Source of the DNA: an uncultured Candidatus Saccharibacteria bacterium
Lineage (GTDB): Bacteria; Patescibacteriota; Minisyncoccia; Phycocordibacterales; WO2-35-19
Direction: 5' to 3'
Assembly: GCA_964440955.1 (NCBI GenBank)
Contig: CAYTTP010000003.1
Location: 1-56,332, forward strand
Length of the DNA: 56,332 nucleotides
In this document: positions 18,077-55,077 of the stretch, one piece after another
Numbering within the stretch: the stretch's first letter is position 1
How the letters are laid out: each line of letters starts with the position of its first letter
Made by a program: the position numbers and the translations under genes
Notes under the pieces: model-generated
Seen by the model: only the letters and a program-made list of their open reading frames with translations
Database searches by the model: none
Told to the model about the DNA's origin: nothing

Positions 18077-18365
18077 CAATATTGTTTCGCAATATTGTTC
18101 GACCGAGCACGCAAACTGCTTTGCGTGCGTGTAGGAAGTCGAAAGCCGGAGCCATGTTGAGCGAAGCGAAACAGGCGAGGCGGGGTCGCAAGATTTTGCT
18201 AAGCAAAATACTTGTGACCGACTCCTACCGGGCGGACAAGCGTGAAGAAAATCTAAACTGCTTTAGATTTTTAGCTTGTCCGAGACGGAGCCATGTTTTT
18301 GTAGCAACAAAAACAGGCGAGTCAGGATCGTGGAAATTTTTGAGCGACGGCGATAAAATTATCCA
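18077..18365 (+). repeat. two tandem tRNA-associated repeat units (Lys locus) separated by a 19-bp copy of the tRNA-Lys 3' end
   Basis: Unit X 18077-18219 ends ...ggcggggtcgcaag-attttgc-taa-gcaaaat-acttgtgacc. Then gactcctaccgggcggaca at 18220-18238 is identical to tRNA positions 18058-18076. Unit Y starts with the 42-mer shared with 1403-1444. Both units contain caaaCTGCtttg-type hairpins. Confidence 0.65.
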
Positions 18366-28681: not shown

Positions 28682-28872
28682 CAAAATAAAACCCAGCTTC
28701 TGCTGGTGTTTTATTTTGTGCGCCGGAAGTGCAGCTTTGTGTAGCAAAGCGTAGCACGGATTCGAAAGGCGGAAGAAATTTTTTAGCAAAAAAATTTCTG
28801 AGCCGGGGTCGCGAGCGATTTTGCTTGACTGAAGCAAAATCGACTTGTGACCGAATCCTGCCCGGCGCACCA
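28682..28872 (+). repeat. tRNA-associated repeat unit (Tyr locus) ending in a copy of the tRNA-Tyr 3' end with CCA
   Basis: Long hairpin gcgcacaaaataaaacccagc/gctggtgttttattttgtgcgc, then ...gagccggggtcgcgagcg-gattttgc..gcaaaatc-gacttgtgacc followed by cgaatcctgcccggcgcaCCA (28852-28872). The gene itself reads ...ggcgcaCAA. Confidence 0.65.
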
Positions 28873-34882: not shown

Positions 34883-35725
34883 ATGCAACAATACTGCTTT
34901 TTTAATGGCAAAATCGTACCAATAGAGGAGGCGAAAGTCTCTGTTTTGGACATTGGGCTTTTGCGAGGTTATGGTATTTATGATGGTATCCCAAGCTTCA
35001 ATGGTAAACCATTTCGTTTTGCTGATCATTGGAGCAGGTTTGTCGCTGGGGCACATACGCTCAATTTGAACATCCCGATCACTGAAGAGAAGGCAGAAAA
35101 AGTAGTGATTGAGTTGCTTGAAAAAAACGGAATGACTGAGAGAGCTAACGTGCGTTTTATTTTGACTGGTGGCGACACGATAAGTGGTATTGAATATGAT
35201 TTTGAAAAGCCTACATTCTACATAATCACTGAAAGATGGGAGAAGCTTCCAGAGGAAGTGTATAGCGAAGGTGCCAAACTTATCACCTACCGTCACGTAC
35301 GAGAGTTACCAGAATCAAAAACTATCAATTATATTCGCGCTGTCAATTTGCAAAATTTTAAAAAAGAGGAGAAGGCTCTCGAGATCCTGTATACCTACGA
35401 TGGCGAGGTGCTTGAGTGCGCGACTAGCAATGTTTTTCTTGTAAAGAACAAAAAAATCATCACTCCGGCCGAAAATGTTTTGAAGGGTATCACTCGCAGG
35501 GTTGTGCTCGAAATTGCTTCCGATACTTACGAAGTCGAGGAAAGGATAGTACATGAAAGTGAGCTCAAAGAGGCTGATGAGGTATTTATTACTTCCTCAT
35601 TTAAAGATATAGTCCCGATAGTCAAAATAGACGATATGGTGGTCGCAAATGGAGAGGTGGGAAGTGTCACTAAAGACATAATGTTTCGGTATAGACGAGT
35701 CATTCAAAACGTTCCCCTCGCTTAG
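34883..35725 (+). CDS. class IV aminotransferase (D-amino-acid / branched-chain aminotransferase family)
   Basis: 280 aa; fold-type IV PLP enzyme signatures (FNGKIVPIEEAKVSVLDIGLLRGYGIYD..., catalytic Lys region); sits in the mur cluster. Confidence 0.6.
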   Translation: MQQYCFFNGKIVPIEEAKVSVLDIGLLRGYGIYDGIPSFNGKPFRFADHWSRFVAGAHTLNLNIPITEEKAEKVVIELLEKNGMTERANVRFILTGGDTISGIEYDFEKPTFYIITERWEKLPEEVYSEGAKLITYRHVRELPESKTINYIRAVNLQNFKKEEKALEILYTYDGEVLECATSNVFLVKNKKIITPAENVLKGITRRVVLEIASDTYEVEERIVHESELKEADEVFITSSFKDIVPIVKIDDMVVANGEVGSVTKDIMFRYRRVIQNVPLA

Positions 35726-35896
35726 CACACATAATTTTCTGCTGAAAATTTGTTCTGCTCGGTGCACCTGCGCAAGGCACGCTCGGGGAAGTTTCTGAAT
35801 GGCTCGTCCCTCATTGCAAATAATTAGCTTTGTGTTATTATTGGCTCTGTCCTAAATGGTATCTTAATTTTCAATCTTTAATTCTAAATTCAAAAA

Positions 35897-36052
35897 ATGT
35901 CCCAAGACCAACTTATAAAATTGATGCATAAGGCGACTGGCGAGATCTACTGGACCCGCAAAAACAAGCGAAAAGTAGAGCGCAAGATCGAGCTCAAAAA
36001 ATACAGCAAAAAGCTCCGCAAACGAGTGGTTTTTAAAGAAATCAAGAAGTAG
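35897..36052 (+). CDS. rpmG: 50S ribosomal protein L33
   Basis: 51-aa ORF (below the ORF-track cutoff): MSQDQLIKLMHKATGEIYWTRKNKRKVERKIELKKYSKKLRKRVVFKEIKK; terminator hairpin follows. Confidence 0.7.
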   Translation: MSQDQLIKLMHKATGEIYWTRKNKRKVERKIELKKYSKKLRKRVVFKEIKK

Positions 36053-36057
36053 TCGCA

Positions 36058-36088
36058 ACAAAAACTGGCTCATCGAGCCAGTTTTTGT
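36058..36088 (+). terminator. rho-independent terminator
   Basis: aaaaactggctc-atc-gagccagttttt. Confidence 0.6.
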
Positions 36089-36104
36089 TAGTATCAAGTT
36101 ACTA

Positions 36105-36205
36105 TAGGGCCTATAGTTCACCATGTCATTCGCGAATGACGTGGTCAGTGGTAGAATAGCGGTCTCCACCCCGTCGCTCGCGAGCGACAGGGTCCAAAAC
36201 CAATA
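36105..36205 (+). pseudogene. degenerate tRNA-Trp-like 5' fragment interrupted by two small palindromic insertions
   Basis: gggccta-ta-gttca[ccatgtcattcgcgaatgacgtgg]tcagtggtag-aat-agcggtctcca[ccccgtcgctcgcgagcgacagggt]ccaaaacc parallels the downstream tRNA-Trp (gggtgat-ta-gtta-agtggcat-aat-agcggtctccaaaacc) but lacks a 3' half. Confidence 0.4.
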
Positions 36206-36209
36206 CCAG

Positions 36210-36470
36210 ATGTATTACGTCTATATTCTTAAAAATTTAGAGTCTGACTACTTATACATAGGCTACAGTTGTAATCTCAGAAGGAGAATAGAAGAACATA
36301 AAAGTGGTAAGGTTTATACCACCAAGCGATTAGGTAAAAATATCGAGCTTATTTACTACGAAGCTTATAAGAGCAAAGAGGATGCGCAGGATAGGGAAAA
36401 GAGTTTTAAAAAATCTGGTTCAGTGTATAATGGCCTTATTAAAAGAATAAAGAGAAGTAGGGGTGATTAG
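36210..36470 (+). CDS. GIY-YIG family nuclease (small, YhbQ/homing-endonuclease-like)
   Basis: MYYVYILKNLESDYLYIGYSCNLRRRIEEHKSG... has the GIY-(10)-YIG ... R ... E/H motif order. ATG read from the ORF-track frame; the stop overlaps the tRNA-Trp 5' end. Confidence 0.65.
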   Translation: MYYVYILKNLESDYLYIGYSCNLRRRIEEHKSGKVYTTKRLGKNIELIYYEAYKSKEDAQDREKSFKKSGSVYNGLIKRIKRSRGD

Positions 36471-36534
36471 TTAAGTGGCATAATAGCGGTCTCCAAAACC
36501 GCGGTCGTGGGTTCGATTCCCTCATCACCCGCCA
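36461..36534 (+). tRNA. tRNA-Trp (anticodon CCA), CCA encoded
   Basis: Acceptor gggtgat/atcaccc, D-arm gtta-agtggca-taat, anticodon arm gcggt-ctccaaa-accgc, T-arm gtggg-ttcgatt-ccctc (one U-U mismatch), discriminator G then CCA. Confidence 0.65.
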
Positions 36535-36587
36535 AGTCGGGTAGCGCCCGAGACGCGTTAATGAAATACTTTTTAGGTTTTGCATAG

Positions 36588-37256
36588 ATGAAGGATACAA
36601 AATATTCGTATCAGAATTTAGTAGGATATATAAGTAGAATAATATTTATATTTGGCGTACCACTTATATTTGTCTATTTTTTTATTTATAAACCACTCAC
36701 TTTAAATAAATGTTTTTCATTTGTTAGTGAGGATGCTCTAAATAACAAGACTGTTGAAATTCAGGTGATCCGTTCTTTGGACCAGGTTGCACAAGAAATT
36801 AAATCATTGGATCCTATTTTACCATTAAATAATGACTGGTTTAAATTTAATGTAACTTTTAGTAATAATTTTAAAGTTGCAATAGTAACATCTAAACCAG
36901 ATTCATACACAGAGGCAACGACAACTTTTTTCTTAGAAACAAAAAACGGAAGCTCTACTATTCCATATGACCAGAAAATAATCATCAATGAAGTAGGGTC
37001 AGAAAATTTAAATAGTCTTATTACAAATCTTGGTTTTATTACAAACAATAAACCTATTTATGTACCTGGCGGCAGTATGATTTCCTTACAAACTAATCCA
37101 AATTTAGGTCAGTTCTGCTCTTTAGTGGAATTAAGTAGAAAATACAAGTTATTAATATACATTGAATCTCTTATAATATTTATTGGTCTGCTTTTAATAA
37201 CCAAAGAAATAATTAGCTTTATAAAACAAGGATTTTCAAATTATTTTAAATTATGA
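36588..37256 (+). CDS. hypothetical membrane-anchored protein (very AT-rich, Asn/Ile/Lys-rich)
   Basis: 222-aa ORF with N- and C-terminal transmembrane helices; roughly 28% GC, well below neighbouring genes. Confidence 0.45.
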   Translation: MKDTKYSYQNLVGYISRIIFIFGVPLIFVYFFIYKPLTLNKCFSFVSEDALNNKTVEIQVIRSLDQVAQEIKSLDPILPLNNDWFKFNVTFSNNFKVAIVTSKPDSYTEATTTFFLETKNGSSTIPYDQKIIINEVGSENLNSLITNLGFITNNKPIYVPGGSMISLQTNPNLGQFCSLVELSRKYKLLIYIESLIIFIGLLLITKEIISFIKQGFSNYFKL

Positions 37257-37810: not shown

Positions 37811-37885
37811 TGCTAGTATAAAAATAATAAGAAAAGCCTTGTGGTGCAATGAACAAAAGAGGTTCGAATCCGAGACGGCCCGCCA
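37811..37885 (+). repeat. repeat unit ending in a tRNA 3'-end-like fragment (ggttcgaatccgagacggcccgCCA)
   Basis: tgctagtataaaa...cttgtgg...ggttcgaatccgagacggcccgcca; a homologous unit lies at 38884-38957. Followed by the conserved leader cccgccaagtcg...ttaatgaaata...ttttgcatagac, also seen after tRNA-Trp at 36525-36587. Confidence 0.55.
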
Positions 37886-37974
37886 AGTCGTGCACAGCAC
37901 GAGATGCATTAATGAAATAGTTTTCTAATTTTGCATAGACTTACCTTAAATTTATGAGCTGATATAATTTTGGT

Positions 37975-54656: not shown

Positions 54657-54729
54657 TGGTTGCCTAAGGGGTGATGTTTCTGGTACAATGCTCTCGTTCT
54701 TTGAAATTCCAAAAATTAGATTTTTTTGC

Positions 54730-55061
54730 TCCGGGATAGCTCAGCGGTAGAGCGAGCGACTGTGTCGTGACGCAGCTTCCAAAAGAAATTTTGGTTGAAA
54801 AACGAGGTGAATTCGGGGGAACCCCAAGTGGGCAATCCCGAGCCAATCCTAAATTAAAGAAAGATATTGTTGTGTAAAAACTTTAATTAAGGCAGGTGTA
54901 GAGACTATTCCGAAAGGAAGTACTTACTCCGTATTTCGGAGTCGGGAAGCGCCTCGCTCCTAATAGCCAATTTGGTTAAAGGAGATGATATAGTCCATAC
55001 TTCTAGTAATAGAAGAGAATATGTAATCGCTTGGTCGTAGGTTCGATCCCTACTCCCGGAG
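54730..55061 (+). tRNA. tRNA-Asn (anticodon GTT) interrupted by a group I intron in the anticodon loop
   Basis: 5' exon 54730-54763: tccggga-ta-gctc-agcggta-gagc-g-agcga-ctgt. 3' exon 55024-55061: taa-tcgct-tggtc-gtagg-ttcgatc-cctac-tcccgga-g. U1:A72 and G73 fit Asn; the 5' splice site follows a U and the intron ends in G. Confidence 0.7.
54764..55023 (+). other. group I self-splicing intron (~260 nt) within tRNA-Asn
   Basis: Conserved core elements R-like GTAGAGACTA (about 54897), S-like GATATAGTCC (about 54988), P-like AATTCGGGGGAA; the internal guide GCAG can pair with the exon end CTGT (U-G at the splice site); no ORF inside. Confidence 0.6.
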
Positions 55062-55077
55062 CAAAGGAATTTAATAT

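Follow-up and report, generated by a model that had tools for sequence, protein, structure and literature searches.

A minute GIY-YIG nuclease gene with a replacement tRNA-Trp and palindromic mini-insertions in a Patescibacteria contig: possibly one copy of an undescribed family of selfish elements

How has a gene for a very small nuclease come to lie between a broken and an intact copy of tRNA-Trp, and do the palindromes interrupting the broken copy belong to the same invader? These questions are raised by a locus in the window, i.e., the whole 56,332-bp contig analysed here, which belongs to a bacterium of the candidate phyla radiation (CPR, Patescibacteria) and whose proteins have their nearest named homologues in Zambryskibacteria. 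Comparison with other genomes, whose loci are cited below by L numbers, indicates that a nuclease cassette has here invaded the only visible tRNA-Trp gene, bringing a replacement tRNA with it. On balance we favour the view that the locus is a member of a hitherto undescribed family of tiny selfish CPR elements, the only protein of which is a GIY-YIG nuclease of ca. 85 amino acids (aa).

The general layout is that given in a preliminary description of this DNA: a GIY-YIG gene lies between a 5' fragment of tRNA-Trp and an intact tRNA-Trp, with the TAG stop codon of the gene (36468-36470) forming nucleotides 8-10 of the intact tRNA (Table 1). Downstream of rpmG and its terminator hairpin, the sequence reads in order GGGCCTATAGTTCA, the palindrome CCATGTCATTCGCGAATGACGTGG (PAL-D), TCAGTGGTAGAATAGCGGTCTCCA, the palindrome CCCCGTCGCTCGCGAGCGACAGGG (PAL-AC), TCCAAAACC, aataccag, and the ATG of the nuclease gene, the tRNA remnant comprising the acceptor 5' strand, the D arm, and the anticodon stem-loop as far as ACC. 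The palindromes had been described as perfect and 23-25 nt long; they are indeed centred on TCGCGA and situated in the D and anticodon loops, but each is a dyad of 24 nt that is perfect only across the central 16 nt, positions 4 and 21 being non-pairing (T.G and C.A). PAL-D is bordered by direct repeats of TCA (36118-36120 and 36145-36147) and PAL-AC by direct repeats of TCCA (36165-36168 and 36193-36196). The ATG at 36210 is the true start of the nuclease gene; gene callers and databases give an open reading frame (ORF) of 115 aa from 36123, which is an over-extension translating the tRNA fragment and a palindrome, since the MYYVYIL motif is where all the homologues begin. The window, L094, L011, and L096 have in common the junction AAAACC + (t)aata/taaat + ATG. 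A promoter consensus scan between rpmG and the nuclease ORF gave nothing convincing, and no second GIY-YIG gene was found in the 56-kb window with tblastn.

Table 1. Features of the nuclease locus and related sequence in the window
Feature	Position	Strand	Basis or remark
rpmG (ribosomal protein L33)	35897..36052	+	Pfam PF00471, E=5.7e-11; conserved upstream neighbour of the native tRNA-Trp locus
Native tRNA-Trp remnant, first 40 nt, interrupted by two palindromes	36107..36201	+	
PAL-D, 24-nt palindromic mini-insertion in the D loop, CCATGTCATTCGCGAATGACGTGG	36121..36144	.	
PAL-AC, 24-nt palindromic mini-insertion in the anticodon loop, CCCCGTCGCTCGCGAGCGACAGGG	36169..36192	.	
Leader aataccag, from the tRNA remnant to the start codon	36202..36209	+	
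Stand-alone GIY-YIG nuclease gene, 86 aa	36210..36470	+	Pfam PF01541, E=2.3e-16
Intact tRNA-Trp, CCA anticodon, CCA end encoded	36461..36534	+	ARAGORN; Rfam 61.2 bits
Decayed 3' fragment (T arm, acceptor, CCA) of a native-type tRNA-Trp	37860..37885	+	nhmmer, tRNA-Trp profile positions 48-73

Which of the two tRNA sequences is native can be told from relatives of the organism, found via the neighbouring aminotransferase (73-82% identity). In three independent contig sets (L204, L205/206, and L207/208) the aminotransferase and rpmG are followed by a single uninterrupted tRNA-Trp, and the nuclease gene, palindrome, and tRNA fragment are all absent from that locus in L204-L208. The proposal that the nuclease gene is a mobile insertion at tRNA-Trp, for which a comparison with relatives had been suggested, is thereby borne out. 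The rpmG neighbour is shared by these empty sites and by many element-bearing loci. Excision in silico of each palindrome together with one repeat copy leaves a 40-nt sequence, GGGCCTATAGTTCAGTGGTAGAATAGCGGTCTCCAAAACC, identical at 39/40 positions to tRNA-Trp of L204, at 37/40 to that of L207, and at 33/40 to the intact tRNA of the window, the differences from the latter including the whole acceptor strand and a compensated D-stem pair. Given the 39/40 identity, what lies upstream is left over from the native gene and, once the insertions are removed, is a clean tRNA 5' part rather than the degenerate one it had been called. The intact tRNA-Trp, which has its own matching acceptor stem, is identical at 64/74 positions to the tRNA of L002, linked to the closest nuclease homologue, and at just 48-51/72-73 positions to the native tRNA of L204 and L207, which makes it the foreign type. 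The native tRNA-Trp is thus broken after nucleotide 40, and a foreign complete tRNA-Trp fused to the nuclease gene now supplies the tRNA. Judged from these alignments, the intact tRNA-Trp is a gene that arrived with the nuclease gene, and both palindromes are evidently true insertions with target duplications (TCA and TCCA), the excision of which restores the native tRNA sequence. The earlier suggestion that the element had duplicated part of its target does not hold, the fragment being native and the intact tRNA imported. Either tRNA type can be resident or incomer, as L131-L133 show the reverse of the window.

The nuclease is a bare catalytic domain without a linker or a DNA-binding domain. 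Its membership of the GIY-YIG superfamily is apparent from the Pfam score, from the catalytic residues (Y3, Y5, Y16, G18, R26, H30, and E63 are invariant in 39 sequences), and from the fold of an AlphaFold2 model (mean predicted local distance difference test score, pLDDT, 88), which matches 1zg2 and the Slx1, I-TevI catalytic, and UvrC domains. In a profile search of PDB sequences the UPF0213 proteins were best (1zg2, E=5e-10; 1ywl, E=8.6e-8), while Slx1, I-TevI, and UvrC gave weak matches; the similarity to the UPF0213/YhbQ type thus consists in the single-domain build and the profile matches to BH0048 and EF2693. The family is large, with 3,652 clusters at 50% identity (E<=1e-10). The ratio of nonsynonymous to synonymous substitutions is 0.03-0.13 between homologues whose synonymous sites are unsaturated, and the copy in L128 is a pseudogene. 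No DNA-binding domain was found across the family, the longer members being read-through fusions to type IV pilin genes. Five of these proteins, of 210-340 aa (P0288, P0291, P0299, P0312, and P0326), have an N-terminal GIY-YIG domain followed by a type IV pilin N-methylation motif, and probably arose by in-frame insertion of elements immediately ahead of pilin genes. Among the 2.9 million viral contigs of IMG/VR the nuclease has only 2 distant matches and the palindrome has 0.

The closeness to BH0048 (PDB 1zg2) and EF2693 (1ywl), and to the Slx1 domain, in sequence, fold, size, and single-domain build raises the possibility that the gene is a housekeeping nuclease of the UPF0213 type that merely lies beside tRNA-Trp, with the fragment an old local duplication in decay. 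The best matches are indeed UPF0213 proteins, those of Bacillus and Enterococcus, purifying selection is strong, and the adjacency to tRNA-Trp is conserved among homologues. We consider this explanation very improbable, because the gene is absent from the same locus in the close relatives of the organism, the fragment is native and the intact tRNA foreign, split old tRNAs flank the cassette in other genomes, and a sister lineage described below resembles a transposon. The preliminary description had itself named a conserved YhbQ/UPF0213 ortholog with no tRNA fragment at its side as the finding that would speak against an insertion; the protein is UPF0213-like, and homologues of the gene do lie beside tRNA-Trp, yet tRNA fragments and palindromes accompany them every time. 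Presence/absence polymorphism, disruption of a tRNA gene, and transposon-like ends set the present family apart from UPF0213/YhbQ proteins, none of which, to our knowledge and in the literature searched, has been described as mobile.

The layout recurs widely. A protein search gave 381 close homologues, nearly all of 80-100 aa, and a scan of metagenome contigs by protein pattern gave a set of 12 loci with at least 61% identity over at least 83/86 residues. In all 12 a tRNA-Trp starts between -9 and +60 nt from the nuclease stop codon; a palindrome core lies 30-70 nt upstream of the nuclease gene in 11, the twelfth having a degenerate copy; and a tRNA-Trp profile finds an upstream fragment covering positions 1-35 in nearly all of them. 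The same layout is found in dozens of CPR assemblies. Since the 56 kb of the window contain no TCGCGA-centred extended palindrome beyond the two at the locus, and independent assemblies have the same arrangement, chance can be excluded.

The locus takes three forms. In the first (L136 and L134), a complete old tRNA with a palindrome in its anticodon loop is followed by the nuclease gene and then by the new tRNA. In the second, the old tRNA is truncated near position 41-46 and followed by the gene and the tRNA (the window, L002, L011, L094, and L124). In the third, the old tRNA is split and the cassette lies between its two halves, with palindromes at the junctions: L096 and L055 have one palindrome on each side of the cassette, L003 has the upstream copy in the D loop, and L009 keeps the downstream half alone. 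The acceptor strands of the split halves pair with each other (GGGAGTG/CACTCCC in L096 and GGGCGAT/ATCGCCC in L003). The PAL-AC sequence occupies an identical position in L002, L003, L009, L011, L094, L096, L114, and L124-L136; D-loop palindromes likewise share one position in the window, L129 (an orthologous copy), L003, L064, L130, and L134, and L130 has one in the T loop. In a second clade (L055, L058, and L066) GTCTC flanks the anticodon-loop copy, which is displaced by 2 nt in the 5' direction, so the anticodon loop has been struck more than once independently. The remnants in L142, L143, L144, and L177 look like deletions between two palindromes.

The part of the old tRNA that is retained is better conserved than its surroundings. 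Between the window and L129 the fragment and palindromes are 83% identical, while four-fold synonymous sites agree at 7/16 and the DNA further upstream at about 44%; between L002 and L124 the corresponding values are 75/75 for the fragment and palindrome, 31/38, and 66%. The retained tRNA part and palindrome thus appear to be constrained, which would fit a homology arm, an element end, or gene conversion.

A 5' tRNA fragment also lies upstream of a GIY-YIG homologue at loci of tRNA-Glu (L139), tRNA-Leu(TAA) (L160), and tRNA-Leu(CAA) (L201); therefore tRNA splitting is not confined to tRNA-Trp. In both tRNA-Leu loci a CCC(C)...GGG(G) hairpin interrupts the fragment, while the tRNA-Glu locus has a 12-nt fragment followed by two CCAT...ATGG hairpins. 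In L133 a second, different GIY-YIG ORF follows tRNA-Trp directly (ca. 50 nt). At 3277-3520 of L145 a resident tRNA-Ile(TAT) is split in its anticodon loop by ca. 180 nt that hold a different complete tRNA-Ile(TAT) and are flanked by inverted repeats of ca. 17 nt (TCAAATGATTT...AAATCATTTGA); the tRNA-replacement cassette in this case contains no nuclease gene (compare L149 below).

The palindromes are themselves members of a dispersed family. An exact search, with one genome taken per species, found them at no fewer than 119 loci, ca. 100 of which, among the matches listed, are in low-(G+C) CPR assemblies of many classes. Besides the anticodon loops of tRNA-Trp they occupy -35-like boxes (TTGA-PAL-TTGACA) and the tops of long A/T-rich hairpins, and in L100 one has entered the stop codon of rpmG; this 27-nt insertion keeps the frame and lengthens L33 by nine residues. 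Their flanks have the consensus T-N-N-A on both sides. Again among the matches listed, an exact 4-nt direct repeat borders the palindrome at 31 of the 83 distinct sites, against 3.1 expected, and 13 of these 31 sites lie outside tRNA-Trp; 17 of the 101 CPR sites are within 600 nt of a gene for this nuclease, which is far above expectation, as such a gene occupies <0.1% of a genome. Moreover, the sequence type of the palindrome changes with the nuclease clade. For the anticodon-loop copies, an intron of the archaeal tRNA type was rejected on inspection, since no bulge-helix-bulge pairing is possible and most copies are in truncated tRNAs.

That the palindromes do not move at all and are selected structural signals, i.e., terminators, stabilisers of the 5' untranslated region, or operators of the nuclease gene, is suggested by the many copies that top longer A/T-rich hairpins before T runs or abut -35-like TTGACA boxes, by the conservation of fragment and palindrome beyond that of synonymous sites, and by the strong RNA fold of the window locus (-40 kcal/mol, z=-2.9). 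This account is nonetheless improbable in view of the identical 24-mer in unrelated contexts and many CPR classes, the excess of 4-nt direct repeats, the precise removal that restores the native tRNA, and the asymmetric variant GACAGGG, present in the window and propagated at many sites; zero-loop dyads are, besides, unlike RNA hairpins.

A further connection between palindromes and nuclease comes from a sister lineage, i.e., homologues at 46-57% identity, which mostly have no tRNA nearby. In a neighbour-joining protein tree the group with tRNA-Trp and palindromes separates cleanly from the repeat-bounded group. When 150 nt on each side of the ORF were considered, an inverted repeat of at least 10 nt was found around it in 40 of 82 distinct loci, compared with 6 of 410 shuffles. 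The repeats of the sister lineage are perfect and 11-22 bp long; beginning 0-30 nt ahead of the ATG and finishing at the stop codon or shortly after it, they delimit units of 285-320 bp in which the GIY-YIG protein is the only ORF and no known transposase class is present. Their termini begin with (A)CCCCCACACC..., (A)CCCCGCACC..., or TCCCGCACC..., i.e., they have ends of the CCCC type. With the C-run taken as the element end, an exact 4-nt duplication (TTGA, TAAA, TCAA, TTTA, CACA, TGTG, CTTG, GTAG) was scored in 11 of 26 distinct elements, compared with at most 4 in any of 1000 permutations, and half of the left-hand flanks are T..A. One such element occurs, at 86% identity, in two unrelated contexts. 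In L149 the element lies in the acceptor strand of tRNA-Ile, where its terminal GGG and the duplication rebuild the 5' end of the tRNA. In the window the terminal-repeat motif CCCC(A/C)ACACC has zero exact matches and nine one-mismatch matches.

The palindrome halves and the repeat termini share the CCCCG/CCCCC start, the 4-nt duplication, and the T-N-N-A preference, and a palindrome would equal two abutted 12-nt ends. The palindrome half TCCCGCCCTTCG of L142 is close to the repeat TCCCGCACCTTTC of L185, and in L159 an end-to-end repeat pair lies directly upstream of the ORF, mirroring the arrangement in the window. For these reasons we read the 24-mers as ORF-less pairs of element ends. The idea of a miniature insertion family put forward in the preliminary description is in agreement with the target duplications and the number of loci, while its supposed separateness from the nuclease element is probably wrong, given the resemblance of the halves to the sister-lineage repeats.

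Much of what is seen in the tRNA-Trp lineage could also be the work of a free-standing homing endonuclease that cuts a nuclease-less tRNA-Trp near the anticodon arm, repair of the double-strand break copying the gene and the flanking tRNA, as in the intronless homing of phage T4 Seg proteins, while the palindromes would be an unrelated miniature transposon, moved by another enzyme, that reached the dead tRNA piece by chance. The lineage is site-specific, always in the native rpmG-linked tRNA-Trp locus; it shows presence/absence polymorphism among relatives, with empty tRNA-Trp alleles; the tRNA sequences on both sides are possible homology arms, conserved beyond neutral expectation; and pseudogenes occur occasionally (L128), as in a homing cycle. 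A precedent is SegB, which cuts within the T4 tRNA gene cluster and whose adjacent target-gene sequence is co-transferred (PMC2330249). In its working the locus is closest to free-standing homing endonuclease genes, here with a stand-in supplied for the disrupted gene, and the nearest documented case of this kind is T4 SegB (PMC2330249). The Seg proteins, with I-TevI as prototype, share with it the GIY-YIG catalytic domain, the free-standing position beside tRNA genes, and the sporadic distribution; they differ from the 86-aa protein, which is chromosomal in CPR bacteria and essentially absent from viral contigs, in having a linker and a DNA-binding domain. The lack of the latter anywhere in the family speaks against the classical homing type first proposed for this gene, and so does the presumed target sequence retained in the intact tRNA. 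Moreover, the palindromes lie in three different loops and in two anticodon-loop registers in independent lineages, their sequence tracks the nuclease clade, as that of an unrelated transposon would not, and the terminal repeats and target duplications of the sister lineage are not produced by homing. Taking both sides together, we regard homing with an unrelated transposon as unlikely, though worth keeping in mind.

Farther still from the evidence are a group I intron remnant with an endonuclease gene, an intron remnant having also been proposed earlier, and an integrase-mediated island in the tRNA gene, either of which we hold to be exceedingly improbable and, for the segment at 36.1-36.5 kb, contradicted by the sequence. 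A tRNA gene in the same contig does host a group I intron, and downstream of the locus a segment of 1.35 kb is enclosed by directly repeated copies of the tRNA 3' end with its flank; but an Rfam search of 35500-37000 at E<=1 gave tRNA alone and no ribozyme, only 8 nt lie between the tRNA remnant and an ORF that overlaps the next tRNA, leaving no room for one, no integrase or recombinase was recognised among the Pfam-scanned ORFs at 34.9-38.9 kb, and the tRNA part duplicated beside the nuclease gene is 5', not 3'. The group I intron (RF00028, 78.2 bits, 54754-55016) is in the anticodon loop of the tRNA gene at 54729-55065, which is not called by ARAGORN; the intron contains no ORF of 70 aa or more. 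As to the direct repeat, the decayed 3' fragment at 37860-37885 is followed by ca. 55 nt (37886-37940) homologous to 36535-36592, the flank of the intact tRNA; the two copies are ca. 80% identical, and the segment between them holds an ORF for a 222-aa protein of unknown function and a DUF4406 ORF. This segment may have been inserted next to the 3' end of the tRNA at an earlier time, and the link of the fragment to the nuclease element is tentative.

For the selfish-element family, a mechanism of movement is inferred from sequence features. The nuclease would recognise CCCC...GGGG ends, either flanking the gene or abutted as a palindrome, and would make staggered cuts at T-N-N-A sites, e.g., the TCCA of the tRNA-Trp anticodon loop, whereupon host repair or ligation would join in the end-bearing DNA. 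The palindromes would then be either end-to-end pairs without an ORF, mobilised in trans, or products of that same cleavage, while the retained 5' part of the tRNA with its palindrome would serve the cassette as a homology arm or as an end. That the cassette persists in a tRNA gene that is essential and single-copy would be due to the substitute tRNA which it carries. The anticodon arm of tRNA-Trp, CTCCAAAACC, which contains TCCA, agrees with the repeat terminus CCCCCACACC at 7/10 positions, and this likeness may explain the specialisation on tRNA-Trp. Alternatively, the unit could be one of 26 nt, A-PAL-T, with a 2-nt duplication, which would fit a 2-nt 3' stagger such as that given by I-TevI. 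SegB produces the same stagger (PMC2330249).

Several observations weigh against the selfish-element family or its mechanism. There are no inverted repeats around the nuclease gene of the window, only palindromes beside it, and an isolated half-site CCCCGTCGCTCG was not found in ca. 1 Mb of fetched loci, so no gene is flanked by half-palindromes there. Among the matches listed, a nuclease gene is missing from the 4 kb next to the palindrome at ca. 80% of the sites. At 21 of the 83 sites the flanks are perfect inverted copies of 4-14 bp without a duplication, which gives dyads of up to 52 bp (e.g., L013, L095, and L074) and is unexplained by the model. The intact tRNA has the same GGTCTCCAAAACC anticodon arm as the broken one, which leaves protection from self-cutting unexplained. 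The moving unit is not uniquely defined, since pairwise comparisons conflict on its boundaries: the window and L129 share the fragment and both palindromes and have different downstream tRNAs, while L126 and L128 share the downstream tRNA and not the upstream fragment. Furthermore, GIY-YIG enzymes are known as hydrolytic nucleases and not as strand-transfer enzymes, so that the insertion chemistry is unproven, and the strong long-term purifying selection would also fit a domesticated function. As a way of integration, a Campbell-type insertion of a circle via the 5' part of the tRNA was considered and rejected; it fits loci of the L131 type and not the window, the whole downstream tRNA of which is foreign.

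It is a further step to suppose that the ca. 85-aa GIY-YIG protein itself moves the DNA, in what would be a new superfamily of DNA transposons with a nuclease as their only enzyme; we regard this as a tentative possibility, somewhat short of an even chance. If it is true, these would be the smallest autonomous mobile elements known, of ca. 300 bp, with inverted ends, one ORF, and a 4-nt T-N-N-A duplication, and their non-autonomous derivatives would have just 24 bp. The tRNA-Trp lineage would be a site-specific offshoot, similar to a gene drive, which knocks out the resident essential tRNA-Trp, so that the cell comes to depend on the carried copy.

Among known mobile elements, insertion sequences resemble the sister lineage in the perfect inverted repeats of 11-22 bp, the single ORF, and the 4-nt duplication, and differ from it in that the units here have only 285-320 bp and their ORF codes for a GIY-YIG nuclease, not for a DDE, DEDD, HUH, serine, or tyrosine enzyme. 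The ORF list and the Pfam scan showed no transposase at the window locus. The palindromes are short, GC-rich, non-coding, dispersed, and often situated in intergenic hairpins, like miniature inverted-repeat transposable elements (MITEs) and repetitive extragenic palindromic (REP) sequences; they share target duplications with the former, and at 24 nt are far below the usual size of a MITE. Other tiny palindromic repeats are the 21-27-nt small dispersed repeats of cyanobacteria and the GC clusters of yeast mitochondria; the palindromes come nearest to these repeat types and belong to none of them. What integrase islands and prophages that insert into tRNA genes and restore them share with the locus is an essential gene invaded, its function kept by imported sequence, and a native piece left as a fragment, while at the present locus there is no integrase, the whole tRNA is imported, the displaced piece is 5', and the cassette is only ca. 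350 bp including the tRNA. An endonuclease ORF carrying a replacement piece of its target gene is known from atp6 of Allomyces mitochondria. A REP is an imperfect stem-loop with an unpaired GTAG or CGTC tail, and REPs flank the gene for a Y1 transposase, the REP-associated tyrosine transposase (RAYT) (PMC3733652). Membership of the REP/RAYT system was rejected for the present palindromes, which are zero-loop dyads without a tail and have no RAYT-like or DDE ORF near them at the window locus. The searchable literature held no report of the palindrome sequence, of GIY-YIG genes linked to tRNA genes in CPR/Patescibacteria, or of repeat-bounded GIY-YIG units with target duplications. The locus itself combines known kinds, selfish nuclease genes and miniature transposons, and the chance is substantial that the family makes up a class of transposon new in kind.

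Other repeats are found beside tRNA genes of the window. At 28683-28872, tRNA-Tyr is followed by ca. 170 nt of non-coding DNA, at the end of which the 3' end of the tRNA (CGAATCCTGCCCGGCGCA) is repeated, this time with CCA after it. The motif GAGCCGGGGTCGCGAG occurs within these 170 nt, together with A/T hairpins and inverted pieces of tRNA 3' ends. It is found again, followed by a hairpin and ACTTGTGACC, ca. 100 nt after tRNA-Ala (1400-1545), and similar sequence follows tRNA-Trp in L064 and L126; the GAGCCGGGGTCGCGAG sequences may be another repeat family tied to tRNA 3' ends. Hairpins with the common loop AAACTGCTTT, two of them identical 24-mers, are located at 481-512, 1410-1433, 18107-18128, and 18248-18271, all beside tRNA genes.

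If the family is what we take it to be, a function would be provided for many of the tiny CPR ORFs annotated as 'GIY-YIG family' or UPF0213-like (the 3,652 clusters mentioned above), and an 85-aa nuclease with a defined DNA site could be a useful tool. Mobile DNA would extend to near its lower size limit, with ca. 300 bp for a unit with the gene and 24 bp without it, in association with a type of nuclease not known as a transposase. As the locus shows, horizontal exchange of an essential tRNA gene by a selfish cassette is possible, which matters for tRNA-based phylogeny as well as for annotation; for the latter, the consequences are dead tRNA halves left in the genome and an over-extended ORF of 115 instead of 86 aa. 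Palindromes placed in promoters, terminators, the stop codon of a ribosomal-protein gene, and tRNA loops are a source of regulatory change in genomes thought to be streamlined.

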